Shown one piece after another: positions 33,200 through 52,801 of a stretch of DNA of 64,000 nucleotides. The notes under the pieces were generated by a model that saw only the letters and a list, made by a program, of their open reading frames with translations, was not told where the DNA came from and ran no database searches. Position numbers and translations under genes: made by a program. Source of the stretch: Dehalococcoidia bacterium (GTDB lineage: Bacteria; Chloroflexota; Dehalococcoidia; GIF9; UBA5629); the NCBI GenBank assembly GCA_050011565.1, contig JBEKIW010000004.1:60553-124552 (forward strand), in the 5' to 3' direction. Positions within the stretch are counted from its first letter, which is position 1, and every line of letters begins with the position of its first letter.

Positions 33200-34642
33200 A
33201 TGGTAGGCATTAAATCATACGGCGCTTACATCCCAAGGTATCGGATAAATCACAATACAATCTTTTCTGCAGTAGGGTTCCTTGGTACTTTTCCGCCACC
33301 GGGTGAGAACGCAGTTGCCAACCATGATGAGGATACGCTTAGCATGGCAGTAGCTGCCGGCGTTGATTGCTTGAATAGCATGAAAAGAGAGGAGATAGAA
33401 GGACTCTATCTGGCAACCACCAGCCAGCCCTATATGTTAAGGCAGAACTCAGCATTAGTGGCGGCTGCACTGGACCTGCAAAATAATATTAGAACTGCAG
33501 ATTTCCTTGGCTCTAACAAGGCAGGAACGGGTGCACTTCTTTCTGCCTTTGACGCCGTCAAAGGCGGTACATTAACCAATGTACTGGTCTGTGCCTCTGA
33601 TTGCCGTGTAAGTAAACCGGGTAGCTCGCAAGAGCCTCTATATGGTGATGCCGCTGCCGCTGTCCTTATGAGCAGTGATGACGTCATTGCTACACTCGAA
33701 GGTCACTTTTCTATATCTTATGATTTTCCTGACCGCTGGAAAGCAACCAGTGATAAATTTGAACATGCCTGGGAAGATAGGTTTATTCGCGACGCGGGCT
33801 ATACCAAGATTATACCCGAGGCAATTTCCGGCCTGCTGAAAAAGTACAACTTAGCTATTACTGACTTCACCAAAATTGCATTTCCTGACCTTTATCCTAG
33901 AGAACATGCCGCGATAGTCAAACGATTGGGCGCCGACCCTCGCCAGATTCAGACATCGTTGCTGGATAAAGTCGGTGATAGCGGTGCGGCTTCGCCCCTG
34001 ATGATGCTGGTGGCAGCGCTGGAAGATGCCAAGCCAGGGGATAAGATAATGGTTGCCAGCTTCGGAAATGGCAGCGATGCTATGTTTTTCCAGGTAACTG
34101 AAAAGATTAAGAAGATAGGTGATAGGCGTGGCATAAAGAAGAATTTGGAGACGAAAAAGGAGCTTGCCAGTTACGAAAAATACCTCGCCTTTCGTAATCT
34201 GACACCTGTGGAGTTGGGGATGCGGGGTGAAATAGGTTTTCGCACTCCCATGTCTACATTGTTCAGGGAACGAGAAACAGTTTTGGCCCTGTGCGGCTCT
34301 AAATGTAAGCGTTGCGGGACGCCGCAATATCCACGCCAAAGAATATGCGTTAATCCTGACTGTGGTGCTGTAGACCAAATGGAGGGCTATCGTTTTTCTG
34401 ATAAAAAAGGTGTGCTGTTTACTTATACAGGTGACAATCTGGCAGCCAGCATTGACCCGCCCGCGATTTATGGGTTCGTAGATTTTGATGGCGGAGGAAG
34501 GTTCTGGTTTGACATTACTGATTGCGACCTGGACTCGACTAAAGTGGGCATGCCTGTGGAGATGACCTTTCGCAGGAGATATGTTGATGAGAGCGGTGGT
34601 GTTTATGGCTATTCCTGGAAAGCAATGCCAGTGCGTGCCTAA
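33200..34642 (+). CDS. HMG-CoA-synthase-like (UPF0219 / archaeal-type) domain fused to a C-terminal DUF35 (Zn-ribbon plus OB-fold) domain
   Basis: The N-terminal MVGIKSYGAYIPRYRI opening and thiolase-like fold over about 350 aa resemble archaeal-type HMGCS. The C-terminal 130 aa have CGSKCKRCG...CVNPDCG (Zn ribbon) followed by an OB-fold (FVDFDGGGRFWFDI...MPVEMTFRR), typical of DUF35. Confidence 0.7.
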   Translation: MVGIKSYGAYIPRYRINHNTIFSAVGFLGTFPPPGENAVANHDEDTLSMAVAAGVDCLNSMKREEIEGLYLATTSQPYMLRQNSALVAAALDLQNNIRTADFLGSNKAGTGALLSAFDAVKGGTLTNVLVCASDCRVSKPGSSQEPLYGDAAAAVLMSSDDVIATLEGHFSISYDFPDRWKATSDKFEHAWEDRFIRDAGYTKIIPEAISGLLKKYNLAITDFTKIAFPDLYPREHAAIVKRLGADPRQIQTSLLDKVGDSGAASPLMMLVAALEDAKPGDKIMVASFGNGSDAMFFQVTEKIKKIGDRRGIKKNLETKKELASYEKYLAFRNLTPVELGMRGEIGFRTPMSTLFRERETVLALCGSKCKRCGTPQYPRQRICVNPDCGAVDQMEGYRFSDKKGVLFTYTGDNLAASIDPPAIYGFVDFDGGGRFWFDITDCDLDSTKVGMPVEMTFRRRYVDESGGVYGYSWKAMPVRA

Positions 34643-34674: not shown

Positions 34675-35877
34675 ATGGCAGAAGGTATTAGAGATAAGGT
34701 AGCTATCATCGGCATGGGCTGTACAAAATTTGGTGAGTTGTGGGATAAAGGCGCTGAAGACCTGATGGTGGACGCCTTCCAGGAATGCATTGAGGACGCC
34801 GGTATGGAAAAGAAGGATATCCAGGCAGCCTGGTTTGGCGTGCATTTTGAGGAGCAAAGTGTGGGAAAAGGGGCTACCTCTATGGCACTAGCGCTAAAGC
34901 TTCCTTTTATTCCTGTTACCAGGGTTGAAAACTTCTGCGCTACCGGCACGGAAGCTCTGAGAGGGGCTTGTTACGGCGTAGCTTCGGGGGCATACGATAT
35001 CGCTTTAGCCTTAGGTGTGGAAAAGCTAAAGGATACCGGGTATGGCGGCCTTCCCGGCGGCCAGGGCCTTTTAGGGTCCAGAAATGCGCTTATAATGCCT
35101 AAAATAACAGCACCGGGAAGTTTTGCCATGCTGGCGACGAGGTATTTCGCAGTGTACAGCCTCAGCCCCGAAGAAGGTAAGAAAATGCTGGCCAGGGTAT
35201 CAGCCAAAAGCCATCATAATGGTTCTTTGAACCCCAAGGCACATCTGCGACGCGAAATAACTGTGGAGCAGGTTATGAATGCTCCAATAATTGCCTGGCC
35301 GCTGGGGCTTTTCGATTGCTGCGGTGTCAGCGATGGTTCGGCAGCAGCTATCGTAACCACAGCTGAGCTGGCTAAAAAGTTCAGGCCTGACCCCGTATAT
35401 ATCAAATCTCTCCAGATTGCCTTAAGTTCGGGCGAGGAATTGATGTATACCAAATGGGATGGCGCGCATGTCGAGACCGGATTTCGCGCCGGAGTTCAAG
35501 CCTATAAAGAGGCCGGAGTTAAAAATCCGCGTAAAGAAATTAGCATGGCTGAAGTACATGACTGCTTCTCCATAACCGAAGCGGTAACTATGGAGGATTT
35601 GCAGTTCAGTCCCCGAGGAAAGGTTAAAGAAGATATCGAGGCTGGACGTTTCAATCTGGACGGCGAGCAGCCTGTTCAGCCCGACGGCGGATTGAAATGT
35701 TTCGGGCATCCTATCGGTGCCTCCGGCCTGCGTATGATGTACGAGATGTATAAGCAGCTGCAGGGCAAAGCCCAGTTGCCGGAACGACAGTTAAAGAACC
35801 CCAAGCTGGGATTAACTCATAATATGGGTGGCTTTCCGGCCATGAATATTGTTAGCGTGGCCATTGTTGGGTTATAA
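34675..35877 (+). CDS. thiolase-like protein (SCP-x / nonspecific lipid-transfer-protein type)
   Basis: 400 aa. N-terminal catalytic Cys region (VENFCATGTEALRGA), C-terminal GHPIGASGLRMM and CCGVSDG motifs. Confidence 0.8.
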   Translation: MAEGIRDKVAIIGMGCTKFGELWDKGAEDLMVDAFQECIEDAGMEKKDIQAAWFGVHFEEQSVGKGATSMALALKLPFIPVTRVENFCATGTEALRGACYGVASGAYDIALALGVEKLKDTGYGGLPGGQGLLGSRNALIMPKITAPGSFAMLATRYFAVYSLSPEEGKKMLARVSAKSHHNGSLNPKAHLRREITVEQVMNAPIIAWPLGLFDCCGVSDGSAAAIVTTAELAKKFRPDPVYIKSLQIALSSGEELMYTKWDGAHVETGFRAGVQAYKEAGVKNPRKEISMAEVHDCFSITEAVTMEDLQFSPRGKVKEDIEAGRFNLDGEQPVQPDGGLKCFGHPIGASGLRMMYEMYKQLQGKAQLPERQLKNPKLGLTHNMGGFPAMNIVSVAIVGL

Positions 35878-36202: not shown

Positions 36203-38092
36203 GTGAAAAAAGTTCTGTTCTTATTGTTTACCTGTCTCTTACTTGTAGCGATTGTACTTCCTGCCTGTAAGCCTGGTCCAGCAGTTACCGGGCCAGTAAT
36301 AAAGATAGGCGTCATCGGGCCGATGCAATATATACAGGGCGAGCATCACTGGTGGGGTGCTGAGATGGCTCGTGATGAAATAAATGCGGCAGGTGGTGTA
36401 AAGGTCCTCCCTGACCAGCCCCCGTATATGGTTGAGCTAATCAAAGCAGACTCCAATGAAATAAACAGCATTACCGATGCCTCCGCGGCCATGGAAAAGT
36501 TGATAACGGTAGACAAGGCACAATTTGTGGTCGGGGGCTTCAGGACGGAAGCTGTCTTCCCCATGCAGGAAGTCGCCATGGACAACAAGATAATTTTCAT
36601 GAATTGTGGCGCGGCTACACTTGCACTACAAACGCCGGTGTTGACGAATTATGACCGCTATAAGTACTACTTCAGAGTCACTCCATTCCAATCCGGCTAT
36701 CTAGTCCAGAATGTGTTAATGTCAATGTCAATGGCCGAAAAAATAATAAAAGAGGATACCGGGATACAAAGGCCGTTGAATGCTGCTGTCTTTACTGAAG
36801 GGGCGCAGTGGGCTGATGCCATAACGTCAATCATGCAATCGCTGATTCCTACGAAGCTGGGTATGAAAGTCGTTGGCACATGGAGACCATCGCCTACAGC
36901 CACAGATTGTAATGCCGAGATGGCAGCTATACAAGCTGCTAACACCGACATTATCGGTGAAGTTATATCCGGCCCGCTTGGTGTACCATATGCCAGGTCA
37001 TGGGGCGAGCTGAAAGTACCGGCAGCTTCAGTGGGCATTAACGTTGAGTCCCAGGCTTTCACCTTCTGGGAAGCGACTCAGCATTTCGGCAACTTGGAGA
37101 CTGGCCTGGTTACATTAGCTGAGAACACAGCGGTTACGCCGAAGACTGTCCCGTTCTACAATGCCTTTGTAGCGAAGACCGGACAGCCACCCATATATAC
37201 TGGTGCCGGCACTTACGATGCCGTCTATACCTTGGCAGAAGCCATAACCCGGGCAGGGACTCTGGATTCAGATGCCGTGGTTGCTGAGCTGGAAAAGACG
37301 GATAGAGTTGGGGCTGGGGCCCGCCTTGTATTTACGGGTATTGATGATCCGTCGAAGGATCCTCACGACGTGACCTACGGTCCCGGATTTTCAACGGGTA
37401 TCGCCGGGCAGTGGCAGGATGGAAAATTGGTAGGTGTCTGGCCGAACCCTAACTATGTCGGGTATGTTCCGAATGATGCCTGGAAAACGGTGTCATATGA
37501 GGGAATGGTTAAGTGGATACCACGCCCCGAGCTAATCGACAAGTTGAAGGCCGAGGCGGCTACGCAACCGGCGGCACCCCCAGCGGGAGAACAACCTGCA
37601 GCACCTCCGGCGGGAGAACAGCCGGCAGCACCTCCAGCAGCAGGATTAGCGACTTACACCAACACCGAGTATGGTTTCTCCGTTCAATATCCTGGTGACT
37701 GGGTAGCGCGACCAGAGCTCATCATTAAGCCTGAATTCCAAAAGGCTGCATACGGTGTATCTGGCTTTGTTCCAGGGTTTGTTGCTTATGCCTTTGCTAA
37801 TCCTCCGGAGGAGTCTAAAGATTGGATCGTTACGTCTTTCAAGGCGACAGGCAATACAATGCCTAAAGTGACCTCAGACATCAAACAGGAGACTCTGGCG
37901 GATGGTACTCAAGCTTACACGTATAAAGCAAGCTATGTATCTGCCACTGGATATGGGATAGAGTCGTACGTCCTCGATGCAGATAAGGGAACCACCCGGT
38001 TTCGTGTGAATGTATTTACTATACCTGATATGGCTCCTATGGATGAGGCGCTGGCTTCGCAAGTTGCTCACTCTTTGACCTTTACAAAGTAA
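36203..38092 (+). CDS. Liv-type ABC transporter substrate-binding lipoprotein fused to a Pro-rich linker and a PsbP-like C-terminal domain
   Basis: 629 aa. GTG start, lipobox LPACK. Residues 30-440 are a periplasmic-binding-protein type I (LivK family) fold. Residues 455-480 are PAGEQPAAP x3. The C-terminal 150 aa begin YTNTEYGFSVQYPGDWV (PsbP-like hallmark). Confidence 0.7.
   Translation: MKKVLFLLFTCLLLVAIVLPACKPGPAVTGPVIKIGVIGPMQYIQGEHHWWGAEMARDEINAAGGVKVLPDQPPYMVELIKADSNEINSITDASAAMEKLITVDKAQFVVGGFRTEAVFPMQEVAMDNKIIFMNCGAATLALQTPVLTNYDRYKYYFRVTPFQSGYLVQNVLMSMSMAEKIIKEDTGIQRPLNAAVFTEGAQWADAITSIMQSLIPTKLGMKVVGTWRPSPTATDCNAEMAAIQAANTDIIGEVISGPLGVPYARSWGELKVPAASVGINVESQAFTFWEATQHFGNLETGLVTLAENTAVTPKTVPFYNAFVAKTGQPPIYTGAGTYDAVYTLAEAITRAGTLDSDAVVAELEKTDRVGAGARLVFTGIDDPSKDPHDVTYGPGFSTGIAGQWQDGKLVGVWPNPNYVGYVPNDAWKTVSYEGMVKWIPRPELIDKLKAEAATQPAAPPAGEQPAAPPAGEQPAAPPAAGLATYTNTEYGFSVQYPGDWVARPELIIKPEFQKAAYGVSGFVPGFVAYAFANPPEESKDWIVTSFKATGNTMPKVTSDIKQETLADGTQAYTYKASYVSATGYGIESYVLDADKGTTRFRVNVFTIPDMAPMDEALASQVAHSLTFTK
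37571..37645 (+). repeat. 27-nt tandem repeat (about 2.7 copies) encoding the PAGEQPAAP linker
   Basis: GCGGCACCCCCAGCGGGAGAACAACCT / GCAGCACCTCCGGCGGGAGAACAGCCG / GCAGCACCTCCAGCAGCAGGA. Confidence 0.7.
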
Positions 38093-38234
38093 CCATTTTA
38101 AATATTAGCGAGACCCCAGGCCAACGCCTGGGGTCTCGCCAGAGGCTTATCAGACGAATTGCCGGTCGGCAGTTTTTGAGGACGGCAAGCCTAGATTGAG
38201 AATGTTATATGGCAAATTAGCAAAAGGAGATGCG

Positions 38235-38879
38235 ATGACGAACAAGACATACAAATTCGTAACAGTGTTAATGGTCATGCTGCTTGTTCTGGGTCTGGCC
38301 TTAGTGGCCTGCAAGGCACCGGCTGAAACAGTAACGCCACCGGCTCCACCCGAACAACAAGCGACGCCACCGGCTGAACAACAAGCGACGCCACCGGCTG
38401 AACAACCAGCTACACCGCCGGCTGCACACCAACTGACATATACAGCTAAAACATATACTAATAGCCAGTATGGCTTCTCAATCCAGTACCCAAAGGATTG
38501 GGTAGAGCGCCCCGAAATCGCCAATGGGAGCCTTATCATTGCCTTCGGTGTACCCGGGTTCGTTCCTGGCGTAAGTATGAGTGTACGTGATGCAAATGAA
38601 CCTATGACTGCCGATTGGGTCGTGGCAGCGAATACGGCTGAGGGGAACACGAAGGTTAAAGTTACGTCACCTCCGACAGAGACAACTCTGTTTGACGGCA
38701 CGCCGGCAGTTCAGTACGTATCGAAGTTTACGTCTGGACAATACGACATTGTTTCTTTTGCCACCAGCACAGACAAGAACGGCAAGCGGATTCGTGCCAC
38801 TGTATGGACTATAGACGCGTTCTCTCCTTACGATGAGGCACTGTTCTCTGAGATAGCACACACCTTGTCAGTTAAATAA
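38235..38879 (+). CDS. PsbP-like domain lipoprotein with a Pro-rich linker
   Basis: The start is more likely the ATG at 38235 (RBS AAAGGAGA) than the ORF-track 38196. Lipobox LALVACK, PPAEQQAT x3 linker, then YTNSQYGFSIQYPKDWVERPE... This is homologous to the C-terminal domain of the upstream SBP. Confidence 0.6.
   Translation: MTNKTYKFVTVLMVMLLVLGLALVACKAPAETVTPPAPPEQQATPPAEQQATPPAEQPATPPAAHQLTYTAKTYTNSQYGFSIQYPKDWVERPEIANGSLIIAFGVPGFVPGVSMSVRDANEPMTADWVVAANTAEGNTKVKVTSPPTETTLFDGTPAVQYVSKFTSGQYDIVSFATSTDKNGKRIRATVWTIDAFSPYDEALFSEIAHTLSVK
38333..38420 (+). repeat. 24-nt tandem repeat (about 3 copies) encoding the PPAEQQAT linker
   Basis: CCACCGGCTGAACAACAAGCGACG repeated, with minor variation. 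Confidence 0.7.
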
Positions 38880-39013
38880 GAAATCGTTTTAGTCCTGTAT
38901 GGAGGCTGCAGGCCGGTTACAGTCTGTAGTCTCCATGAAGGTTAGCGGAACAAGTATGCCGTTTGGTACCGTAGAGTTAGGCAAGTAAGATTGAAGGTTA
39001 GGTAAGATAAGAT

Positions 39014-39886
39014 ATGGTTGAAGGAATTATAGTTCAGACTCTGGTGAAAGGAAGTGTATATGCGCTCCTGGCTCTCGGTTTCGCCCTAATCTTTGGGGTA
39101 GCCCGGGTGCTACAGCTGTCGCATACCGCGTTTTACATGCTGGCAGCCTACGGGATATTTGCTTTCGCCAGCTTACTCGGTTGGAGTCCGATTGTGTCCA
39201 TTATCCTGTCTATAGTCATTACTACCGGGCTGGGGCTTCTGGTGTACAAGCTACTTATCGACCGTGTACGTGAGCACCACGTAACCGTGATGCTGATAAC
39301 CCTGGCTGTAGCCATGATGTTTCAGCAGATCATGATTATTGCCTTCTCAGGTCAATATCGTTCAGCGCCGGCTTTTGTCACAGGATACTGGGAAATACTC
39401 GGCGTAAAAGTCGTCTTCCAGAATTTGCTGGTATTTGCTGGTGCGGCGGTTGTTCTGCTCATCGTATGGGCGCTTTTGTCAAAGACAAGACTGGGTATTG
39501 CCATCAGGGCTACCGCTCAGGACACCGAAATTGCCAATCTAATGGGGATAAATGTCTCCACTATACTGTTCACGGTTATGGGTATTGCCGCGGCACTGGC
39601 CGCGGTTGCCGGCGTGCTGGTGGCTCCAACGTTGGTCCTTGAACCTGGTATGCTGTGGCCTCCATTCGTCATGGTCATGGCGATAATTACTCTGGGTGGT
39701 CTGGGAAGCGTCAAGGGAAGTGTCATCGGAGCTTTTATTCTGGCCCTGGTTGAAACCCTGGTTGTTTTCTTGCTGCCTACCGGTGCCTTTCTTAAGGGGG
39801 CCGCCGCCTTGCTGGTCATGGTGATAGTACTCATTGTAAGGCCTGAGGGTCTATTTGGCGTAGTTTTCGAAGAGGAGAGATTGTAA
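39014..39886 (+). CDS. branched-chain-amino-acid-type ABC transporter permease (LivH family)
   Basis: 290 aa with about 8 TM helices, LivH-like. Confidence 0.85.
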   Translation: MVEGIIVQTLVKGSVYALLALGFALIFGVARVLQLSHTAFYMLAAYGIFAFASLLGWSPIVSIILSIVITTGLGLLVYKLLIDRVREHHVTVMLITLAVAMMFQQIMIIAFSGQYRSAPAFVTGYWEILGVKVVFQNLLVFAGAAVVLLIVWALLSKTRLGIAIRATAQDTEIANLMGINVSTILFTVMGIAAALAAVAGVLVAPTLVLEPGMLWPPFVMVMAIITLGGLGSVKGSVIGAFILALVETLVVFLLPTGAFLKGAAALLVMVIVLIVRPEGLFGVVFEEERL

Positions 39887-39887
39887 A

Positions 39888-40937
39888 TTGCTAAGTAGAT
39901 TATTTAAAGATTTTCAGGGCGATGTAGTGGCCATACCGGGCAGGTTAATAGCTTTAATTTTCTTTGTGCTCTTGTTTCTAATTCCTGCATTTACACAGCA
40001 GCCTTACATACTGCGTATGCTGATTTTTACGAATATGTTCGTTATCTTCGCCGTAAGCTGGGATTTTATATCCGGCTATACCGGCCAGTTGAACTTCGGT
40101 CATGCCCTCTTCTTCGGGGTGGCCGCCTACACGACAGCTTTGCTGAACAGGGGAGGCGACCTGGGCCCGCACTGGCCAATATGGGTAACCATACCGCTGG
40201 GTGCCATTGCAGCGGTAATAGCCGGCGTTGTCATGTGTTTGCCGGCATTGAGGTTGAGGGGACCCTATCTGGCTCTGGTAACCCTGGCGTTTCCACTTAT
40301 TCTTCTCGGGGTTATTTTCTCTTTTACCAAGTTTACCGGTGGTGAGTTAGGAATTTCCGGTATTGACCGCATTTCCGATTCCAGAACAGTAGAGTACTAC
40401 ATCTCAGTGCTCGTCATGATCGTCTCGGTATTCATAATGTGGAAGCTTACGGATGCCCAGAGCGGCCTGGTCAGGACAGGGATTATTCTTCATGCTATAC
40501 GCGAGGATGAAATTGCAGCTCGCGCCAGCGGAATAAATACAATACGATATAAGCTGTTCGCCTTTGCTGTAGGCGGCTTCTTCGCCGGAATAGCAGGCGG
40601 CTTTTATGCGCACTTCCTGAGAATTGCCGGTCCTTCCTCCCTGGACCTTACATTGTCGTTCCAAGCCATAATATGGACTGTTTTCGGAGGTATTGTTAGC
40701 ATTTACGGGGCGGTGGTGGGGGTTTATATACTTTATCCTCTGATGGAGTCCCTGCGTTCTATCTCGGAGTACCGGATGTTAATCTTTGCCGTCATAGTGA
40801 TACTGATTCTTCTTTTCATGCCTGAAGGCATTGCCGTCTGGATACGGGACAAGATTGAGAGACAATGTCCACGTTGCAAGCTGACTAATGTGTCATGGCG
40901 TCATACCTGTAGAGCTTGCAGCGCTGACCTGTACTAG
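39888..40937 (+). CDS. ABC transporter permease (LivM family) with a C-terminal CxxC..CxxC tail
   Basis: 349 aa polytopic. Last 30 aa: CPRCKLTNVSWRHTCRACSADLY. Confidence 0.85.
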   Translation: MLSRLFKDFQGDVVAIPGRLIALIFFVLLFLIPAFTQQPYILRMLIFTNMFVIFAVSWDFISGYTGQLNFGHALFFGVAAYTTALLNRGGDLGPHWPIWVTIPLGAIAAVIAGVVMCLPALRLRGPYLALVTLAFPLILLGVIFSFTKFTGGELGISGIDRISDSRTVEYYISVLVMIVSVFIMWKLTDAQSGLVRTGIILHAIREDEIAARASGINTIRYKLFAFAVGGFFAGIAGGFYAHFLRIAGPSSLDLTLSFQAIIWTVFGGIVSIYGAVVGVYILYPLMESLRSISEYRMLIFAVIVILILLFMPEGIAVWIRDKIERQCPRCKLTNVSWRHTCRACSADLY

Positions 40938-40989
40938 GGGATGCTTGGATAAGTAAAAGCTTACAATCTTCTGGGAAAAGCTAGAGATT

Positions 40990-41739
40990 CTAGAGGCCGA
41001 GATACGTCTTTCTGATAGTTTCGTCTTTGAGCAACTCTGCAGCTGTTCCTTGGGCGATGATATGGCCTCTTGACATAACGTAATTTCTTACTGAGAGGCT
41101 AAAAGCGAAACTGACATCTTGTTCAGCCAGTAAAATAGTAACACCCAGTTCGCGGTAAATCTCTTCTACACGTTTAAACAGGTCCTGCTTTAATTTTGGT
41201 GCCAGGCCGCTTGAGGGTTCGTCAACCATCATGAACTTAGGGCGACGCATCAACGACCTGCCAATAGCCAGCATTTGACGTTCACCGCCGGATAGTGTTC
41301 CCGATATTTGATTCTGTCGTTCTTTCAGTCTGGGAAAGAGCTCATAGACCTTTTCCATGCTACTATTAATTGCCTTCTGGTCCTTGACAAGATAAGCGCC
41401 GGCCAGCAGGTTATCTTTAACCGTCATTTCAACAAATGGCCTGCCTCGCTCCGGGCAAAGGAGCAGACCTCTTTTGGCTATATCAGATGCCGACAGATTT
41501 TCAATCCTCTCACCCTCGAACTCTATAATCCCATCGAAGGTTATATCAGCCTGTCTGGTTCCTTTTGAGACCTCTTTCTCCCACTTTATTAATCCTGCCA
41601 TAGCCCTGAGTAAGGTGCTCTTTCCGGCACCGTTGGGGCCGACAAGGCTCACCAATTCGCCTTTTTCTACATTAAGGCTGGCGTCATCCAGCACCGTGGC
41701 CGTGTCGTAACGGACGGTTACGTTTTTAACTTCCAGCAA
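40990..41739 (-). CDS. ABC transporter ATP-binding protein (LivF family)
   Basis: Walker A GPNGAGKST, signature LSGGERQ, Walker B MMVDEPS. Confidence 0.85.
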   Translation of the reverse strand: MLEVKNVTVRYDTATVLDDASLNVEKGELVSLVGPNGAGKSTLLRAMAGLIKWEKEVSKGTRQADITFDGIIEFEGERIENLSASDIAKRGLLLCPERGRPFVEMTVKDNLLAGAYLVKDQKAINSSMEKVYELFPRLKERQNQISGTLSGGERQMLAIGRSLMRRPKFMMVDEPSSGLAPKLKQDLFKRVEEIYRELGVTILLAEQDVSFAFSLSVRNYVMSRGHIIAQGTAAELLKDETIRKTYLGL

Positions 41740-42499
41740 TGAGCACCTCCTTACCTGTGTAAGCTTCGATTACTACGGGGTTTTTGGATATTTCTTCAGG
41801 TGTGCCTGTAGCGATGATTTCGCCAAAGCAAAGTACAATTACTCTGTCTACTATCTTCATCAGCTCACTAAGCTTGTGCTCTATGATAAGCATAGCCGGC
41901 CCTTCACTATGAAGCCGGCCGAATCTCCCGCCTTTGTGTAACCGTTTCATTGATTTGGCCACAAGCTCGGTTTCGGCTGGGTTCAATCCGCCGAAAGGCT
42001 CATCGAGGATAAGCAACTCCGGTTCGGTGGCAATAGCTCTGGCTACCTCCAGCCGCTTTAAATCCCCGTGTGCTAGAATAGAAGCCGGTTCTAGAGCCAT
42101 GTCGGCGATACCTACGAATTCCAAAGCGTCTCGTGCCTTTACCTCGACTCTTTTGACCCATTCGCCTCGCTTGGATATCCTCGGGCAGAGACAACCTACC
42201 ATAACGTTAGCTATGATAGGCAAATGGCGGAAAGGTTTTACTACCTGGAAAGTTCCCACCATACCTCTCTGGACAATATCCCACGATCGTTTTCTGGTTA
42301 TATCTTTGCCGTCAAGTATGACTTTTCCTGAATCCGGCCTCAATATGCCGAGTAAGCAGCGTATGAGTGTGGTCTTGCCCGAACCGTTTGGCCCAATCAG
42401 GCCGACGATTTCATCTCTTTCTATCTTGAAGCTCACATTATTAACAGCAGATAGACCGCCGAAGGTCTTGGTTAAATTTTCGACTTCTAGAAACGCCAT
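41726..42499 (-). CDS. ABC transporter ATP-binding protein (LivG family)
   Basis: Walker A GPNGSGKTT, Walker B LILDEPFGGLNP. Its start lies 7 nt after the upstream CoA ligase stop. Confidence 0.85.
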   Translation of the reverse strand: MAFLEVENLTKTFGGLSAVNNVSFKIERDEIVGLIGPNGSGKTTLIRCLLGILRPDSGKVILDGKDITRKRSWDIVQRGMVGTFQVVKPFRHLPIIANVMVGCLCPRISKRGEWVKRVEVKARDALEFVGIADMALEPASILAHGDLKRLEVARAIATEPELLILDEPFGGLNPAETELVAKSMKRLHKGGRFGRLHSEGPAMLIIEHKLSELMKIVDRVIVLCFGEIIATGTPEEISKNPVVIEAYTGKEVLIAGS

Positions 42500-42506
42500 T
42501 TTATAG

Positions 42507-44216
42507 CTACTCCTCTCTCAGCTCACGACGAGATACTTTGCCGACATCTGTTTTAGGCACCTCGCCTCTGAACTCGACGATTGTGGGACACTTATAATCA
42601 GCTAGCCTCTCCTGGCAATATTTCATGATATCCAGCTCTGATAGCTTCCCTCTGGCTTCTGTCTCGAGGACAACTACTGCTTTTACTTTCTCTCCAACCT
42701 CGGGGTCGGGAACTCCGATTACACCCGTCTCCTTGATTTGAGGATGAGCCGCCAGGACTTCTTCTACCTCCCTGGCATATACAATCTTGCCCTTGTGCTT
42801 AATCATATCACGTTTTCTGTCGTAGAAAAAGAAATAGCCGTCTTGATCCATTCTGCACAAGTCGCCGGTACGAAGCCAGATTTCACCGTCTATATTGACA
42901 AATGTTTCACTGGTTGCCTCCGGGTTTTTCCAGTATCCTTTGGCTACTTGTGGACCCTTTATTATAAGCTCGCCTATCTCGCCAACAGAAAGAAAATTGT
43001 TGCTATCGGGGTCGACTATGGCAGCCACGGTATTAGGTAGAGGTACACCGAAAGAGCCGACTTTTGTTTTGCCGAATGGGTTGACAATTCCCACAGAAGT
43101 TGTTTCAGTCATCCCCCAGCCCTCGTGGATTTTGGAGCCCGTCCTTTTCTCCCAGCCTTTAGCCGTGTCCTCAAGTAGGATGTCGGCGCCGGAGATAAGA
43201 ACTTTGACGCGCTTCCAATTGACTCTGTCGGTGCGGTGGTAATCTCGAAGATATTCATATAAGGCCGCCACGCTGTAGAAAATAGTTGCATGGTAAGTTT
43301 CCATGGCGTTGAGTAAGTCGTCAAGGTCGATGGTGGTGAATATCACCAGGGTGTATCCCTGCGCCAGACCACCCGCCACCAACACCGCCTGGCCATAGAT
43401 ATGATAGAAGGGCAAATAAGCTAAAATGGTTTCCTTGCCTTCTTGCGTAACATCGCCCCAGAAATTTGCGGCTATATGTTCGGATACGTTAATGTTTTCG
43501 TGGGTTATCATAACACCTTTGGGTAGTCCCGTTGTCCCTCCGGTGTAGGGAAGAGTTACCAGGTCCTCCTTATTGTTGAATTCGATTTTCGGTGGATTGG
43601 GTGGATATTTCTTAATCAAGTCTTTGAATAGATAGAATCCCTCTCTATGGTAGAGCTCGGCAGGCGGTGCTGCCATCTTCTGGTAGACGGCACGGAGTAC
43701 GCTGCTGCCCATGAACCTTTTCAGCCACGGTATATAATCGGCGATATTTACCAGGATGACCTTATCCAGCTTGACTTCTGCCCGTTCGACGTTATCATAG
43801 AGATTATCCTGGCAGATAATTATGGTGGCGCCGCTGTCTTCAATTTGATGTTTGATTTCGGGGCTGACATAGAAAGGACTGATGGCAGTTAAAATGGCTC
43901 CAGCCTTTAAAGCTCCGAAAAAGGCTATGATGAACTGGGGTGAGTTCAGAAGTAGTAAAGCGACTCTATCCCCCTTTTTAACTCCTAAGTCCTGGAGAGC
44001 TGTGGCGAATCTATCGACATGGTCTCTTAGCTCGCGGTAGCTCATCTTCCTGCCATAGAATATTACGGCAGTTCTATCCTTCCATTTGTCTGTGGCTTCG
44101 TTAAAGATGTCAACTGCGGACTTATCCGCCATTTTTATGTCCGCCGGCACCTCCGGGAGATAGAACTTCAGCCACGGTCTGGATTCGTATATTGCCTTGT
44201 TGGTATCGGCCGCCAT
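42507..44216 (-). CDS. AMP-dependent acyl-CoA synthetase/ligase
   Basis: AMP-binding motifs (YTGGTTGLPKGV, GWGMTE, TGD). The start is taken at the internal ATG (44214-44216), which has a perfect RBS AAAGGAGGAGGTGA. The ORF-track 5' extension MLYFAPNKGGGDI appears to be leader sequence. Confidence 0.85.
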   Translation of the reverse strand: MAADTNKAIYESRPWLKFYLPEVPADIKMADKSAVDIFNEATDKWKDRTAVIFYGRKMSYRELRDHVDRFATALQDLGVKKGDRVALLLLNSPQFIIAFFGALKAGAILTAISPFYVSPEIKHQIEDSGATIIICQDNLYDNVERAEVKLDKVILVNIADYIPWLKRFMGSSVLRAVYQKMAAPPAELYHREGFYLFKDLIKKYPPNPPKIEFNNKEDLVTLPYTGGTTGLPKGVMITHENINVSEHIAANFWGDVTQEGKETILAYLPFYHIYGQAVLVAGGLAQGYTLVIFTTIDLDDLLNAMETYHATIFYSVAALYEYLRDYHRTDRVNWKRVKVLISGADILLEDTAKGWEKRTGSKIHEGWGMTETTSVGIVNPFGKTKVGSFGVPLPNTVAAIVDPDSNNFLSVGEIGELIIKGPQVAKGYWKNPEATSETFVNIDGEIWLRTGDLCRMDQDGYFFFYDRKRDMIKHKGKIVYAREVEEVLAAHPQIKETGVIGVPDPEVGEKVKAVVVLETEARGKLSELDIMKYCQERLADYKCPTIVEFRGEVPKTDVGKVSRRELREE

Positions 44217-44246
44217 TATGTCACCTCCTCCTTTATTTGGAGCAAA

Positions 44247-44256
44247 GTATAGCACA
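44247..44256 (-). promoter_or_regulatory. extended -10 promoter element TGcTATACT for the downstream CoA ligase
   Basis: Minus strand reads TGTGCTATACT, about 30 nt upstream of the ligase ATG. A duplicate sits at 46366-46376. Confidence 0.35.
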
Positions 44257-44500
44257 GTGTTTGTATTTTGCCAATGTGACTGAGATGTTTGGTGGTTATA
44301 TTAAAGTACGAACGAAATATACGCAGGATTGAGTTTTGCGAATTTAACAGCGTTCGCCCTGGTACTTTCATAACAGCACCAAATTCTAAGCTAGAGCAGA
44401 TTGTTGCCCATTTCTTTTGTTCGGTTGATAGGCTCTTTGCCGGCATCTAAGGCAGGCTTGTGAAAGGCTACATCAGTATCGCTTCAATGTCAAGCCGGTT

Positions 44501-46333
44501 TTACAGCTCGTCCTCTCTCAATTCCCGCCTAGATACTTTGCCGACATCTGTCTTTGGCACTTCACCCCTGAACTCTACGATTCTGGGACATTTATAGTGC
44601 GCCATATGTTCCGCGCAATATTTCATGATTTCTTCTTCGGAGACTTTGCCTCTGGCGTCCGTCTCGAGGACGACGATGGCTTTGACTTTCTCTCCGACGT
44701 TTTTGTCGGGAACCCCGATTACACCCGCCTCTTTGACCAGTGGATGCGCTTTCAGTACCTCCTCCACCTCCCTGGCGAATACCGCCAGGCCCTTATATTT
44801 AATCATGTCACGTTTTCTATCGTAGAAAAAGAAATAGCCTTCTTTGTCCATTCTGGCCAGGTCGCCGGTTCGAAGCCATGTTTCGCCGCCGATTTTGACG
44901 AACATTTTCTTCGTCTCTTCCGGATTATGCCAGTATCCTGGGGATATTTGTGGACCCCTGACGGCAAGCTCGCCTATCTCGCCAACAGGCAGAAATTTGG
45001 TGCTTTCAGGACTGAGTATTCCAGCTACTGTGTTACACATGGGGACGCCGAAAGAACCGACCTTCGGCCTGCCGTATGGACTACCCATTCCAATAGAGCT
45101 AGTCTCAGTCATACCCCAGCCCTCATGTATTTTAGTATTTGTCCGTTTCTCCCAACCTATCGCCGTATCTTCAAGAAGGGCATCGGCGCCGGAGACGAGA
45201 ACTTTGAGGCGCTTCCAGTTAATTCTGTCCGTACGTTGATAATCTCTGAGGTACTCATACAAAGACGGGACGCTGAAGAAAATAGTTGCCTTGTAGCTTT
45301 CGATGGCATTTAAGATGTCGTCGAGGTCGGGGGTGGTGAATATCACCAGGGTGTAGCCCTGAGCCAGACCACCCAACATAATCACTGCCTGACCGTAGAT
45401 ATGGTAAAAGGGCAAATATGCCAGTATGGTCTCTTTGCCTTCCTGGACAATATTTCCCCAGAACTCTGAGCCTATGTACCTGGCTGCAGTGATATTATAG
45501 TGGGTTATCATAGCTCCTTTGGGAAGTCCTGTTGTGCCGCCGGTATAGGGCAGGGTTACCAGGTCCTCATGAATATTGAACTTGATTTTTGGCGGCTTGG
45601 GCGGATATTTCTTAATCAAGTCCTGTAATTGATAAATTCCTTCTCTTTCATATATCTCAGAAGGTGGTGCTGCCATCTTCTGGTATACAGCCCTGAGTAT
45701 GCTGCTGCCCAGGAACTTTTTTAGCCCGGGTAAATATTCTGCAATACTGGTCAGGATAACCTTATCCAGTTTGACTCCTGACCGTTCCACATTTTCATAA
45801 AGTATATCCTGGCAGACGATTATCCGGGCGCCGCTGTCTTCAATTTGATGTTTGATTTCGGGACTAACATAAACAGGACTGATGGCAGTCAGTATAGCTC
45901 CAGCCTTCAGGGCGCCGAAATAGGCTATGATGAATTGAGGTGAGTTCAGGAGCAGTAAAGCAACCCTATCACCTTTTTTGACTCCCAGGTCCTGCAAGGC
46001 TGTGGCGAATCTATCGACGTGGTCTCTTAATTCGCGGTAGCTTATTTTTCTACCGTAGAATATTACGGCGGTCCTATCCTTCCATTTAGTTGTAGCTTCA
46101 TCGAAGGTTTCGACTGCGGATTTTTCCGGTATTTTGACATCCGCGGGCACCTCTTTGAGGTAAAACTTCAGCCATGGTCTTTTTTCATATATTGCCTTGT
46201 TTGGGTCAGCCTTTGGAGCAGCTTTCTTTACTTGAGCTTTCTTTAGTTGAGCTTTCTTTAGTTGAGCTTTCTTTAGTTGAGCTTTCTTTGGGTGAGCCTT
46301 CTTTGGGTGGGACTTCTTTGGGTGAGCCTTCAT
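44501..46333 (-). CDS. AMP-dependent acyl-CoA synthetase/ligase with a lysine-rich N-terminal repeat tail
   Basis: Paralog of 42507..44216, about 75% identical by eye. The start is taken at ATG 46331-46333, preceded by TTAGGAGGAGACGACACA. The N-terminus is MKAHPKKSHPKKAHPKKAQLKKAQLKKAQLKKAQVKKAAPK. Confidence 0.8.
   Translation of the reverse strand: MKAHPKKSHPKKAHPKKAQLKKAQLKKAQLKKAQVKKAAPKADPNKAIYEKRPWLKFYLKEVPADVKIPEKSAVETFDEATTKWKDRTAVIFYGRKISYRELRDHVDRFATALQDLGVKKGDRVALLLLNSPQFIIAYFGALKAGAILTAISPVYVSPEIKHQIEDSGARIIVCQDILYENVERSGVKLDKVILTSIAEYLPGLKKFLGSSILRAVYQKMAAPPSEIYEREGIYQLQDLIKKYPPKPPKIKFNIHEDLVTLPYTGGTTGLPKGAMITHYNITAARYIGSEFWGNIVQEGKETILAYLPFYHIYGQAVIMLGGLAQGYTLVIFTTPDLDDILNAIESYKATIFFSVPSLYEYLRDYQRTDRINWKRLKVLVSGADALLEDTAIGWEKRTNTKIHEGWGMTETSSIGMGSPYGRPKVGSFGVPMCNTVAGILSPESTKFLPVGEIGELAVRGPQISPGYWHNPEETKKMFVKIGGETWLRTGDLARMDKEGYFFFYDRKRDMIKYKGLAVFAREVEEVLKAHPLVKEAGVIGVPDKNVGEKVKAIVVLETDARGKVSEEEIMKYCAEHMAHYKCPRIVEFRGEVPKTDVGKVSRRELREDEL
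46221..46333. repeat. 15-nt tandem DNA repeat (about 7 copies) encoding the K-K-A-(Q/H)-(L/P) tail
   Basis: GCTTTCTTTAGTTGA x3, then GCTTTCTTTGGGTGA / GCCTTCTTTGGGTGG / GACTTCTTTGGGTGA. Confidence 0.7.
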
Positions 46334-46365
46334 TGTGTCGTCTCCTCCTAATTTGCTAAGCGTCA

Positions 46366-46376
46366 AGTATAACACA
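46366..46376 (-). promoter_or_regulatory. extended -10 promoter element TGtTATACT for CoA ligase paralog 2
   Basis: Minus strand reads TGTGTTATACTTGAC... followed by the RBS and ATG, matching the architecture of the leader at 44217-44260. Confidence 0.35.
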
Positions 46377-46580
46377 TTATACTCGTATTTTGCTACTGTG
46401 TATGAAGTGCTGGTTATGCTGTTTTTAAGTCCGGAATATCCGGTTTATTGCCACGCAGGCTCTGGAATTGATAAAATACGCTACTATAGATGATTGCGGC
46501 TTAAATTAGCAGGTAATACCTGGCGCCGTTCACAATATAATCAGATGGGTTCGTCAAACATTAACCACAAGGAGGCTCGA

Positions 46581-47078
46581 GTGAGAAACAATAAAAAACA
46601 TTGGTTTCTGCTTTTGGGACTTATCGTCCTGCTGCTCAGTTCTGTCGTCGGTTGTGGTCAGCCGGGATTCACGGCATATACCAATGATTTGGGAGGGTAT
46701 AGTATTAGTTATCCGCTCAGTTGGAAGGGCGAGGTTTCTAAAGACGGGACAACATTCCTAATAGCATCTCCGACCCGCGTGGCTTCGGTCATGATATATG
46801 TAGCAGATTCCATGTCAGCTCAAACTGCTGCCCAACGTTGGCTTATGTCATTGGGAACACATTGGTCTGAAATAGCTCAAATAGAAAATAAACCAATGGA
46901 AGGCTTCTGGAACTGGTATGTTTCATATGACTATAATGCGGATACTGGCCCGTTTCACGGAGAGGCTTACTTCAAGAGCACTGCAGACCACCTCTATAGA
47001 TTGGATACGGCAGCAGATTCGGCTGGATACAAGAATTATCCCTTCTCTATGATAATCTCATCATTTAAGCTGAAGTGA
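46581..47078 (+). CDS. PsbP-like domain lipoprotein (third paralog)
   Basis: Probable GTG start at 46581 after GGAGG. Lipobox VVGCGQ. YTNDLGGYSISYPLSWKGEV... is homologous to the domains at 38235..38879 and the SBP C-terminus. Confidence 0.55.
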   Translation: MRNNKKHWFLLLGLIVLLLSSVVGCGQPGFTAYTNDLGGYSISYPLSWKGEVSKDGTTFLIASPTRVASVMIYVADSMSAQTAAQRWLMSLGTHWSEIAQIENKPMEGFWNWYVSYDYNADTGPFHGEAYFKSTADHLYRLDTAADSAGYKNYPFSMIISSFKLK

Positions 47079-52024: not shown

Positions 52025-52801
52025 ATGAAGCGTTATAAATACCTGTTATTGTGTCTAACTATTGTCGTGTCTATTGTCTCACTGGGTGGTTGTCTTGTAT
52101 CATCCTCTACTCAGTCTGAAATCCAACTACCAACCCCAAGCAGTACACCGGCGATGCCGCAGATTGGGGCACTGGTTACCTTGCCCAGCTTTGCCGATTT
52201 GACGGATACCGTTAAGCGTTCGGTGGTAGCCATTGACACCGAGACCGTTGTTACCAGAAGATATATTCAGCGCACTATCCCGGGTGCCGGCTCGGGATGG
52301 ATAATCGATGAAAGCGGCATCATCGTAACCAATAATCATGTAATCGAAGGTGCACAAACTATTACGGTGGAACTGGAAAACGGTAAGACGTACACTCCAG
52401 TAAGCATCAAAACTGACCCCGATTCCGATATAGCGATACTTAAGATTAATGCCGGGAAGCTACCGGCTCTCAAAGTTGGTGATGCCTCGAAGCTGAGGGT
52501 TGGGGATTGGGTGGTAGCGGTAGGAAACGCGCTGGGAATGGGCATAAGTGTTAAAGACGGTATCGTCAGTCGTCTCGGCGTGAGCATTCAAATATCTCCA
52601 AGTGAAACGTATTCCAATCTAATTGAAACCAATGCCGCAATTAATCCCGGCAACAGCGGCGGTCCGCTGGTCAACCTGGCGGGAGAGGTAATCGGCATAA
52701 CCAGCCTGAAACTCGCTATTGGCGGCGTCGAAGGGATGGGATATGCCATAAATATAGAAGATGCGCTGCCGGTGATTCAGAGGCTATTCAAATCAATTTA
52801 G
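52025..52801 (+). CDS. secreted trypsin-like serine protease (S1C/HtrA-like, no PDZ domain), lipoprotein
   Basis: 258 aa. Lipobox LGGC. His (TNNHV), Asp (DIAILK) and Ser (GNSGGPLVN) catalytic triad motifs. Confidence 0.8.
   Translation: MKRYKYLLLCLTIVVSIVSLGGCLVSSSTQSEIQLPTPSSTPAMPQIGALVTLPSFADLTDTVKRSVVAIDTETVVTRRYIQRTIPGAGSGWIIDESGIIVTNNHVIEGAQTITVELENGKTYTPVSIKTDPDSDIAILKINAGKLPALKVGDASKLRVGDWVVAVGNALGMGISVKDGIVSRLGVSIQISPSETYSNLIETNAAINPGNSGGPLVNLAGEVIGITSLKLAIGGVEGMGYAINIEDALPVIQRLFKSI

Follow-up and report, generated by a model that had tools for sequence, protein, structure and literature searches.

Tandem FadD-like acyl-CoA ligase genes joined to a Liv-type ABC transporter in an uncultured Dehalococcoidia bacterium

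In the 64,000-nucleotide stretch of DNA analyzed here (the window), an uncultured Dehalococcoidia bacterium encodes a Liv-type ABC transporter together with two tandem FadD-like acyl-CoA ligases, and all genes of the locus are intact. We regard this locus as probably a self-contained module for the uptake and activation of a carboxylic acid, most likely an aliphatic one. Because the linkage of ligase and transporter genes is conserved in two phyla, import of a carboxylic acid and its activation to a CoA thioester, as proposed in the preliminary description, is the best reading. Given that the importer carries its own FadD-like ligase, joined to an ATPase gene, the system would probably import an aliphatic acid and convert it to the CoA ester.

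Gene organization and intergenic junctions

Open reading frames and domain matches confirm two tandem ligase genes, co-oriented with livG and livF and convergent with livH, livM and the gene for the substrate-binding protein (SBP; Table 1). The preliminary description named these genes correctly but missed a gene for a 214-aa lipoprotein between the SBP gene and livH. The ligB stop codon (TAG, 42509–42507) and the livG start codon (ATG, 42499–42497) are separated by exactly 7 nt (CTATAAA), and the Shine–Dalgarno sequence of livG, GAGAGGAG, lies inside the last ligB codons, just as had been noted. Further on, livF shares 14 nt with the end of livG, and AAGGAGGTG precedes its TTG start. Since the ligB–livG gap is only 7 nt, it cannot hold a terminator or a promoter, either of which had been named as counting against the linkage. 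The four-gene transcript originally suggested thus stands in part: co-transcription of ligB–livG–livF is predicted securely, but obligatory inclusion of ligA is not, given a promoter-like site for each ligase copy.

Table 1. Features of the locus and of the distant candidate pathway genes (positions in the window)
Feature	Positions	Strand	Evidence or remark
Hydratase	805–1563		35 kb from locus
ACADs	21799–24140		12 kb from locus
SBP, substrate-binding lipoprotein, 629 aa	36203–38092	+	Peripla_BP_6, E 1.9e-27 (Pfam)
Stem-loop 1, 14 bp	38108–38139	+	dG -32.2 kcal/mol, z -6.6
Stand-alone lipoprotein, 214 aa	38235–38879	+	ORF, lipobox LVAC, weak PsbP_2 match
Stem-loop 2, ~16 bp	38898–38937	+	dG -33.3 kcal/mol, z -5.8
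livH, LivH-type permease, 290 aa	39014–39886	+	BPD_transp_2, E 4e-37
livM, LivM-type permease, 349 aa	39888–40937	+	BPD_transp_2, E 1.7e-44
livF, LivF-type ABC ATPase, 249 aa	40990–41739	-	ABC_tran; TTG start
livG, LivG-type ABC ATPase, 257 aa	41726–42499	-	ABC_tran and BCA_ABC_TP_C tail
ligB, FadD-like acyl-CoA ligase, 569 aa	42507–44216	-	AMP-binding, E 2.7e-92; AMP-binding_C
Promoter-like site of ligB-livG-livF	44246–44274	-	TTGGCA-17-TGnTATACT
ligA, FadD-like acyl-CoA ligase, 610 aa	44501–46333	-	AMP-binding and AMP-binding_C
Duplicated promoter-like site upstream of ligA	46366–46396	-	GTAGCA...TGTGTTATACT, upstream-region alignment

Each of the two promoter-like sites is conserved and follows the form TTGnCA-17-TGTGCTATACT. 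The ligB site, which falls in the 284-nt gap between ligA and ligB, has an extended -10 element (10/12 matches in the scan, with the TG); it is kept before the livG-proximal ligase in the related loci L004–L007 and L014, and a similar form precedes single-copy ligases. The site upstream of ligA is likewise conserved in related loci, and a search for a terminator downstream of ligA found none. Transcription of ligA may be separate from that of ligB–livG–livF.

The SBP carries a lipoprotein-type signal ending in the lipobox LPAC, followed by a Peripla_BP_6 domain (residues 33–372 by Pfam, with the fold reaching ~455), a Pro-rich linker of 2.7 copies of a 9-aa repeat (nt 37565–37638) and a C-terminal PsbP-fold domain (residues ~480–629; model pLDDT 96, TM 0.74 to PsbP/CyanoP). 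It owes its length to this extra domain. The protein is 100% identical to a Dehalococcoidia MAG protein (P0121), and its AF2 model (pLDDT 89.7) has a type-I PBP fold by Foldseek. The 214-aa lipoprotein has a comparable build, with a Pro-rich linker (8-aa repeat, 3.4 copies, 38352–38432) and a PsbP-fold domain paralogous to that of the SBP (44% identical); the nearest relatives (L004–L007, L014, L017 and L058) have its gene at the corresponding place. Directly 3′ of the SBP stop codon, a perfect GC-rich stem without a U-tract folds better than all 200 shuffles; it probably acts as a partial terminator or as a 3′ structure that stabilizes the mRNA. A second strong stem-loop separates the lipoprotein gene from livH, and long stems, mostly of 12–24 bp, occur in the SBP–livH interval of nearly all related loci. 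LivM ends in a CPRC-x11-CRAC zinc ribbon (nt 40866–40934), which is present in 54/54 members of the module family and in 0/4 of a second Liv type.

Conservation of the module and divergence of the ligase copies

The relatives compared, all of them MAGs, include ~45 Dehalococcoidia loci in which a ligase gene is followed within 1–7 nt by livG–livF, convergent with SBP–livH–livM. This arrangement holds for every Dehalococcoidia locus that has sufficient flank and whose ligase reaches 64% identity or more; liv genes were not found near ligase homologs of 40% identity or less. In Thermodesulfobacteriota the orthologous module (ligase 55%, SBP 44% identical) is collinear, with six genes on one strand in the order SBP–livH–livM–ligase–livG–livF. 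Because the 1–7 nt stop-to-ATG spacing and the embedded Shine–Dalgarno sequence recur in ~50 independent loci, whose ligases are 52–90% identical to ligB, the junction is, by this comparison, far beyond chance. Adjacency and translational-coupling geometry kept across two phyla, together with a Thermodesulfobacteriota gene order that puts the ligase after the permeases and ahead of the ATPases, support a functional tie between the ligase and the Liv-type transporter.

The two ligases share 78% identity over 567 aa with zero gaps, and both retain the TGGTTGLPKG, GWGMTE, TGD and RKRDMIK motifs and the PKTDVGK lysine. At 22 positions of fixed difference between the copies, single-copy orthologs agree with ligA at 16 and with ligB at none; on this evidence ligB, the livG-coupled copy, is the diverged paralog and ligA is close to the ancestral sequence. 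LigA also has a 40-aa N-terminal tail of Lys-rich pentapeptides, (KKAHP/KKAQL)n, corresponding to a 15-nt tandem repeat (46220–46335). Such tails, variable in copy number, are found in many ligase orthologs.

Substrate class and comparison with known importers

Judged from the sequences, the substrate is most likely aliphatic (a fatty acid of medium or long chain, or something closely related) rather than aromatic or a branched-chain amino acid. Although all NCBIfam matches at the locus lie under curated cut-offs, the top matches of the ligases are all long-chain-fatty-acid–CoA ligase models (PRK08314, 457–467 bits; 457 for ligB), with FadD-type or generic acyl-CoA synthetase models filling the first ten places. 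Among solved structures in the PDB search, the highest-scoring relative outside the NRPS enzymes is A. fulgidus FadD-1 (229 bits), nearly tied with feruloyl-CoA synthetase (225) and 4-coumarate ligase (224). The SBP ligand cannot be read from its fold, because identity to any solved PBP is just 15–20% and amino-acid, urea and aromatic-acid binders rank equal. The preliminary description had the locus feeding nearby ACAD, hydratase and thiolase genes, which is not supported: greA, thiC, ribosomal, tRNA-synthetase and MEP-pathway genes intervene before the ACADs and hydratase, and the adjacent thiolase, paired with an HMG-CoA-synthase-like/DUF35 fusion, is not of the β-oxidation type. The module does not adjoin β-oxidation genes in Dehalococcoidia. 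In one Thermodesulfobacteriota lineage (L083/L084) it is embedded in a straight-chain β-oxidation cluster, with ACADs of 594 aa, of which one has an ACAD9/VLCAD C-domain, FadB-like ECH+3HCDH proteins, thiolases and a second ligase; in another (L081/L082) its neighbors are unrelated.

The same design could instead serve dicarboxylic, branched or alicyclic acids (pimelate-like or cyclohexanecarboxylate-like), with the paralogs covering different members, which we consider unlikely. The PimA model scores 313–325 bits against the ligases, but this is below its own cut-off and well under the FadD-type scores. A two-gene ACAD pair in the window weakly resembles PimC/PimD, yet lies 12 kb off, beyond housekeeping genes; and while the thiolase next to the locus belongs to the SCP-x/DUF35-associated type, which elsewhere handles bulky 3-oxoacyl-CoAs, the L083/L084 cluster resembles a generic one for long-chain β-oxidation. 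In R. palustris, pimFABCDE adjoins a Liv-type ABC cluster (RPA3723–3725), and the Peripla_BP_6/COG0683 SBPs beside it, whose annotation is for the binding of branched-chain amino acids, bind fatty as well as dicarboxylic acids, which agrees with the range of substrates of the neighboring acyl-CoA ligase, pimA (PMC3223731). Likewise, the Ralstonia/Cupriavidus pimelate ABC transporter and pimeloyl-CoA ligase are adjacent by locus-tag number and share their acid by fitness data (PMC12543098). Those systems are proteobacterial, with periplasmic SBPs and with ligases in or beside a β-oxidation operon, whereas here the SBP is a membrane-anchored lipoprotein, sharing 15–20% identity with the solved SBPs of R. 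palustris, and the ligase lies within the transporter's own gene order.

Uptake and activation of an aromatic acid (benzoate, hydroxybenzoate or a phenylpropanoid) by ligases like BadA, BzdA or CouB appears improbable, and the bzdA/badA analogy first drawn is not borne out. In Azoarcus and R. palustris, Liv-type ABC genes do share clusters or transcripts with genes for CoA ligases of aromatic acids, 4-coumarate and feruloyl-CoA ligases score nearly as high as FadD-1, and aromatic-acid SBPs of R. palustris are among the SBP fold matches. However, benzoate-CoA ligase models are outside the best 25 NCBIfam matches of the ligases, solved benzoate-CoA ligases reach 140–165 bits against 229 for FadD-1, the window ORFs scanned gave no match to a benzoyl-CoA reductase or ring-cleavage family, and a straight-chain β-oxidation cluster surrounds the orthologous module of L083/L084. 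The excerpted text of PMC4424350 describes mbdB1B2B3B4B5-mbdA of Azoarcus sp. [quoted passage not shown] The likeness lies in importer and cognate ligase genes sharing a transcription unit and in the internal promoter, comparable to the separate promoter-like sites of the present locus; but mbd serves an aromatic substrate, its ligase belongs to the benzoate-CoA-ligase type rather than being FadD-like, and its ligase gene comes last, rather than first and translationally coupled to an ATPase gene or, in the collinear form, between permease and ATPase genes.

Finally, an ordinary importer of branched-chain amino acids (or of other amino acids or urea), with the ligase a mere neighbor or an enzyme of another pathway, is very improbable: the SBP does appear in the source annotations as a [quoted passage not shown], the best models for the transporter subunits are LivF, LivG, UrtB and UrtC, and the SBP's top fold matches include proteins that bind leucine or urea, but every equivalog cut-off is widely missed (SBP, 35 against 477 bits; LivF, 195 bits; UrtB and LivH models both under cut-off for the livH product), neither the recurrent ligase–livG junction nor a ligase inserted between permease and ATPase genes is expected of an unrelated neighbor, and most COG0683 "BCAA" SBPs tested in R. 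palustris failed to bind such amino acids (PMC3223731). The locus shares with E. coli LivJ/K-LivHMGF (HAAT, TC 3.A.1.4) its five components, the Pfam family of each subunit and the LivG-specific BCA_ABC_TP_C, and differs in its unreached cut-offs, embedded ligase, LivM zinc-ribbon tail, SBP (a lipoprotein to which a PsbP-fold domain is added), and predicted substrate, a carboxylic acid and not an amino acid.

Proposed uptake-and-activation mechanism

In the favored reading, import of an aliphatic acid, a membrane-anchored binding lipoprotein would catch the acid outside the monoderm cell and LivH/LivM would bring it in, driven by LivG/LivF. A dedicated FadD-like AMP-forming ligase would turn it into acyl-CoA at once, trapping it and drawing uptake forward, and the short junction with its embedded Shine–Dalgarno sequence would allow the ligase gene and livG to be translated in step. 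A tandem duplication of ligase and promoter appears to have occurred in this lineage; ligA, the upstream copy, would have kept its near-ancestral sequence and acquired the Lys-rich tail, and divergence of ligB probably widened or shifted the range of acids activated.

In vectorial acylation by E. coli FadL/FadD (TCDB class 4.C, acyl-CoA-ligase-coupled transport), a FadD-type ligase traps the fatty acid that has crossed the membrane, a concept shared by the FadD-like ligase and trapping proposed here. To our knowledge, no ABC importer participates in that uptake and fadL and fadD are genetically unlinked, whereas transport across the cytoplasmic membrane is here predicted to be ATP-driven, SBP-dependent and genetically locked to the ligase. 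As analogues, fadD5 of mycobacteria is the first gene of the mce1 operon for lipid import, and in peroxisomes ABCD transporters work with acyl-CoA synthetases. The peroxisomal topic is treated in PMC6642094. The pairing of an ABC importer with a CoA ligase is a known design, and the locus would add to it no new principle but a variant, in which the ligase is FadD-like, duplicated and joined to the ATPase gene.

Conserved linkage of the ligase and transporter genes

The four minus-strand genes of the locus, livF, livG and the tandem acyl-CoA ligase paralogs ligB and ligA, converge on the plus-strand genes for the substrate-binding lipoprotein (SBP) and the LivH and LivM permeases. Predicted ORFs and domain matches bear out the gene set and strand arrangement of the preliminary description, although it had missed both a lipoprotein gene between those for the SBP and LivH and the extra C-terminal domain that accounts for the length of the SBP. 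The TAG stop of ligB precedes the ATG of livG by exactly 7 nt, with GAGAGGAG located within the last ligB codons; livG and livF overlap by 14 nt, and AAGGAGGTG precedes the TTG start of livF.

Features of the ligase–transporter locus and of the genes around it
Feature	Position	Strand	Remarks
Hydratase gene	805-1563		
ispG	14709-15761		MEP pathway
dxr	16833-17960		MEP pathway
Acyl-CoA dehydrogenase (ACAD) pair	21799-24140		
thiC	27866-29161		
TPP riboswitch	29214-29327		69 bits
Third AMP-binding ligase	31368-32966	-	532 aa, FadD-like
HMG-CoA synthase (HMGCS)-like/DUF35 fusion	33200-34642		
Thiolase	34675-35877		SCP-x-type
SBP	36203-38092	+	629-aa Peripla_BP_6 lipoprotein
SBP C-terminal domain	37634-38089		
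Stem-loop after SBP gene	38108-38139	+	dG -32 kcal/mol, z -6.6
Lipoprotein gene between SBP and livH	38235-38879	+	214 aa
Stem-loop after lipoprotein gene	38898-38937	+	dG -33 kcal/mol, z -5.8
livH	39014-39886	+	BPD_transp_2 permease
livM	39888-40937	+	BPD_transp_2 permease
LivM CPRC-x11-CRAC tail	40866-40934		
livF	40990-41739	-	ABC ATPase
livG	41726-42499	-	ABC ATPase with BCA_ABC_TP_C
ligB	42507-44216	-	AMP-binding ligase
ligA	44501-46333	-	AMP-binding ligase
ligA tandem repeat	46220-46335		15-nt unit
Second lipoprotein paralog	46494-47078		divergent from ligA
Trypsin-like peptidase gene	52025-52801		
Serpin gene	53291-54580		Pfam E 7.5e-119

To place this arrangement in context, 77 loci with ligase relatives were fetched from species-representative genomes, and the module genes were located by tblastn. 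The nearest ligase homologs belong to Dehalococcoidia and Dehalococcoidales MAGs, and the SBP has a 100% identical counterpart (P0121) that NCBI lists under a Dehalococcoidia MAG. In all Chloroflexota loci whose ligase reaches 64% identity and whose flanks are long enough (~45), ligase-livG-livF is convergent with livM-livH-SBP, and the genes flanking these modules differ, for example recA/recX in one related locus (L001) and thiolase/HMGCS in another (L003). In Thermodesulfobacteriota/Syntrophaceae MAGs (ligase 52–58% identical), the genes are collinear on one strand in the order SBP-livH-livM-ligase-livG-livF, such that the ligase gene lies inside the transporter operon. The Thermodesulfobacteriota and window modules are orthologous as wholes, with 55% identity between the ligases and, across the full binding domain, 44% between the SBPs. 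In ~50 loci the ligase stop lies 1–7 nt from the livG ATG, and in every case a GAGGAGG-like Shine-Dalgarno sequence is embedded in the C-terminal 'LREE' codons of the ligase. Ligase homologs at most 40% identical had no liv genes nearby among the 77 loci. Ligase–transporter co-orientation and operon-type spacing, as looked for in an uptake-and-activation operon, are thus conserved across genomes. Judged by the conserved linkage, short junctions and collinear operons, the ligase is an integral and co-inherited part of this transporter family.

An AMP-binding gene is likewise part of a second Liv operon, distantly related or unrelated, in four of the loci (L008, L009, L015 and L054); the combination of ligase and Liv transporter is therefore a recurrent design. 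In L009 (346-8818) this operon is divergent from the module and encodes LivG, a 655-aa ligase (AMP-binding_C_3), LivH, LivM, two SBPs and a PsbP-like protein. When the Thermodesulfobacteriota ligase served as query to look for cultured relatives, the best 120 matches were all proteins from MAGs or metagenomes.

Transcription signals and the history of the ligase pair

The preliminary description proposed co-transcription of ligase-ligase-livG-livF. Approximately 70 nt of upstream sequence are conserved between ligA and ligB, including a sigma-70-like extended -10 promoter-like site (TTGGCA-17-TGTGCTATACT) ~35 nt before each ligase ATG. The same promoter-like element lies ahead of the livG-proximal ligase in the five closest related loci (L004-L007 and L014), and similar elements occur upstream of single-copy ligases. 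Because a conserved promoter-like site precedes each ligase copy, the unit predicted securely is ligB-livG-livF, whose promoter looks ancestral; the site ahead of ligA would be a duplicated copy of that of ligB. Folding revealed no terminator-like structure 3′ of ligA (z -0.45), so read-through from ligA into ligB is possible but not required. The proposed transcript would be retained for its livG-proximal part; ligA, with a promoter-like site of its own, may be transcribed separately. Folding of the convergent livM/livF gap gave z +0.28, and a consensus terminator scan returned 13 hits, which is chance level (12.5 expected), with zero in the relevant gaps. On the opposite strand, the strong stem-loops that follow the SBP and lipoprotein genes both lack a U-tract. 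Long stems, mostly of 12–24 bp, occupy the SBP-livH gaps of nearly all related loci, which is the usual arrangement for producing SBP in excess over permease. An Rfam scan of the window identified a TPP riboswitch, upstream of thiC, and tRNAs, none of them within the locus.

The tandem ligase pair is confined to the window and the same five closest relatives. An alignment of the two paralogs spans 567 residues without a gap, at 78% identity. In a neighbour-joining tree (no bootstrap), the copies coupled to livG fall into one clade with long branches, and the upstream copies join the single-copy orthologs. At 22 positions the two copies carry different fixed residues; single-copy orthologs agree with ligA at 16 of these and with ligB at none. 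From branch length and shared states alike, the diverged paralog is the livG-coupled ligB. The derived changes in ligB include P296I, P317A/S318A, A346I and Y474H/L477K, adjoining conserved motifs, and its divergence would be compatible with a shifted or widened substrate range. In a further related locus (L017, 10717-11070), ligB is reduced to a ~300-nt 3′ remnant that retains the Shine-Dalgarno sequence and the livG junction, and that shows loss of one paralog after the duplication.

Substrate class of the module

The transporter has the complete component set of the HAAT/Liv type (TC 3.A.1.4), with two permeases, two ATPases in which Walker A/B and signature motifs are legible, and a cluster-B type-I SBP (Peripla_BP_6, Pfam E 1.9e-27). 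By sequence, the SBP does not qualify as a receptor for branched-chain or hydrophobic amino acids, scoring 35 bits against the LivJ/LivK equivalog PRK15404 (cut-off 477), and LivH, LivM, LivG and LivF reach none of their equivalog cut-offs. An AlphaFold (AF2) model of the SBP, based on 36 homologs (pLDDT 89.7), has the type-I PBP fold and matches LivJ, LivK and UrtA-type PBPs with Foldseek probability 1.0 and TMt 0.75–0.86. Attempts to read the ligand from these comparisons were abandoned: the best matches in a PDB sequence search reached E 1e-4, and the Foldseek matches, all at 15–20% identity, were binders of pyroglutamate, urea, leucine or 4-hydroxybenzoate ranked within an order of magnitude of one another. 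A carboxylate ligand is instead suggested by the obligate linkage of the ligase to the transporter, together with the precedent of Rhodopseudomonas palustris, in which the majority of COG0683 SBPs annotated as 'BCAA' binders have aromatic, fatty or dicarboxylic acids as ligands rather than branched-chain amino acids (PMC3223731).

Both ligases comprise AMP-binding and AMP-binding_C domains (Pfam E 1e-88 to 1e-92) with intact ANL core motifs, namely the P-loop TGGTTGxPKG, GxGxTE, TGD, the hinge (D/R)xK and the A10 lysine. For each paralog the top nine NCBIfam models are long-chain-fatty-acid-CoA ligases, led by PRK08314 at 457/467 bits (cut-off 705), and none reaches its cut-off; the PimA model scores 313–325 bits. 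The preliminary description had likened the locus to aromatic/organic-acid loci such as those with benzoate-CoA ligase (bzdA/badA), and comparison does not support the aromatic likeness. Specifically, benzoate-CoA ligase is not within the best 25 NCBIfam families, and solved benzoate-CoA ligases score 140–165 bits versus 229 bits for Archaeoglobus fulgidus FadD-1, the best stand-alone solved-structure match. Structures of feruloyl- and 4-coumarate-CoA ligases lie close to FadD-1 (224–225 bits). No benzoyl-CoA reductase or ring-pathway family was matched among the window ORFs scanned. The third ligase gene of the window, upstream of tRNA-Asp, scores 461 bits against PRK06187, slightly below the cut-off of 476, and an equivalent gene occupies the same place in L003.

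The nearby beta-oxidation genes that the locus was thought to feed are not operonic with it, the ACAD pair lying 12 kb and the hydratase gene 35 kb away, with greA, an arginase-family gene, cinA, thiC, rpsB, tsf, pyrH, frr, dxr, ispG and tRNA-synthetase genes in between. The ACAD pair shows a weak likeness, far under cut-offs, to the PimD (small) and PimC (large) pimeloyl-CoA dehydrogenase subunits. The adjacent thiolase and HMGCS-like/DUF35 genes best match the archaeal thiolase/HMGCS/DUF35 complex (PDB 6esq/6et9) and PhlABC, and the pair is syntenic with the SBP gene in L003, L010 and L014. A role for this pair in mevalonate-pathway entry was considered and dropped, since the window encodes IspG and Dxr of the MEP pathway. 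Elsewhere in the window, the trypsin-like peptidase gene lies near a gene for a serpin, a protein family not often found in bacteria.

The collinear module of one Thermodesulfobacteriota lineage (L083/L084) lies within a beta-oxidation cluster that encodes two acyl-CoA dehydrogenases of 594 aa (the C-domain of one is of the ACAD9/VLCAD type), two FadB-like proteins (ECH+3HCDH), two thiolases, a 3-hydroxyacyl-CoA dehydrogenase and a second ligase; the neighbours of the module in another lineage (L081/L082) are unrelated. It is this single association that suggests medium- or long-chain fatty-acid activity of the ligases. On balance, the locus is probably a module that takes up and activates a carboxylate, most likely an aliphatic acid; of the two parts of this reading, we are more confident of uptake combined with activation than of the class of substrate. 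The earlier interpretation is thus retained for carboxylate uptake and activation, but neither for the aromatic likeness nor for supply of nearby beta-oxidation genes.

Our literature search found no paper on the module in Dehalococcoidia or syntrophs, and returned analogous systems alone. The closest experimentally studied analogue is the Azoarcus CIB mbd operon (mbdB1-B5-mbdA), which joins ABC transporter genes to the gene for a 3-methylbenzoate-CoA ligase, with an internal promoter ahead of the latter (PMC4424350). The same transporter-plus-ligase logic is represented for aliphatic acids by pim and RPA3723-3725 of R. palustris (PMC3223731) and by the pimelate transporter and ligase of Ralstonia (PMC12543098). 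Compared to these known systems, the window module differs in having a FadD-like ligase whose gene precedes the ATPase gene and is coupled to it, a zinc-ribbon LivM, a PsbP-domain lipoprotein SBP and a lineage-specific ligase duplication.

Accessory domains and possible docking of the ligase

A C-terminal zinc-ribbon tail on LivM, CPRC-x11-CR(A/V/I)C, occurs in 54/54 modules from both phyla, in Dehalococcoidia as well as Thermodesulfobacteriota, and LivM of a second Liv type is without it. The tail is probably cytoplasmic, because it is rich in Lys and Arg, and may serve as a cytoplasmic docking element. The C-terminal domain of the SBP, joined via a Pro-rich repeat linker, is predicted to adopt the PsbP/Mog1 alpha/beta sandwich fold (model pLDDT 96), matching PsbP and CyanoP with Foldseek probability 1.0 and TMq 0.69–0.74 (CyanoP TM 0.74), and more weakly the Mycobacterium tuberculosis proteins Apa, MTC28 and LpqN, and DcrB. 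PsbP-fold domains of the module score at best 15–21 bits against Pfam PsbP and PsbP_2 (cut-offs 23.5 and 27), and hence fail sequence membership in these two families. Some module clades have the domain on the SBP and others do not; the window additionally encodes two stand-alone lipoprotein paralogs of it, one in the SBP-livH gap and one divergent from ligA. At the N-terminus of ligA, the tandem repeat encodes a Lys-rich (KKAHP/KKAQL)n tail. Similar (KKAxP/KKAQL)n tails of 2–9 or more repeats are found on ligA-type ligases in many metagenomes; among ligA orthologs they span 16–65 aa with widely variable copy number, and are absent from some. Such a tail could bind membranes or polyanions.

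The module bears a conceptual likeness to FadL/FadD vectorial acylation. A stronger form of this idea, which we hold to be unlikely at present, is that the ligase is a stoichiometric, physically docked subunit of the importer and more than a co-regulated neighbour; the two would then form a primary-active machine for 'vectorial acylation' that hands the acid directly from the permease to the ligase active site. Several features are consistent with a docked ligase and none is proof. The near-invariant 1–7 nt translational coupling of ligase and LivG fits this proposal, the module-specific LivM zinc ribbon could act as docking site, and the Lys-rich tail could hold the uncoupled ligA at the anionic membrane. 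The extracellular PsbP-fold domain on the SBP, with LpqN among its weaker fold matches, would fit as well, insofar as mycobacterial cell-envelope lipoproteins such as LpqN bind hydrophobic ligands.

In sediments and aquifers, the Dehalococcoidia and the syntrophic Thermodesulfobacteriota are abundant anaerobes, most of them uncultured. Routine annotation labels the transporter of this module as one for branched-chain amino acids and its ligase as a long-chain acyl-CoA synthetase. If dedicated acid scavenging is indeed its function, metabolic reconstructions should book the module as carboxylate, not amino-acid, uptake. The ligA/ligB pair, with its clear direction of divergence, offers a natural experiment on the widening of substrate range. 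In addition, the combination of ligase–ATPase coupling, LivM zinc ribbon and PsbP-domain SBP provides a concrete system for testing whether bacterial ABC importers physically pass their substrates on to the first metabolic enzyme.
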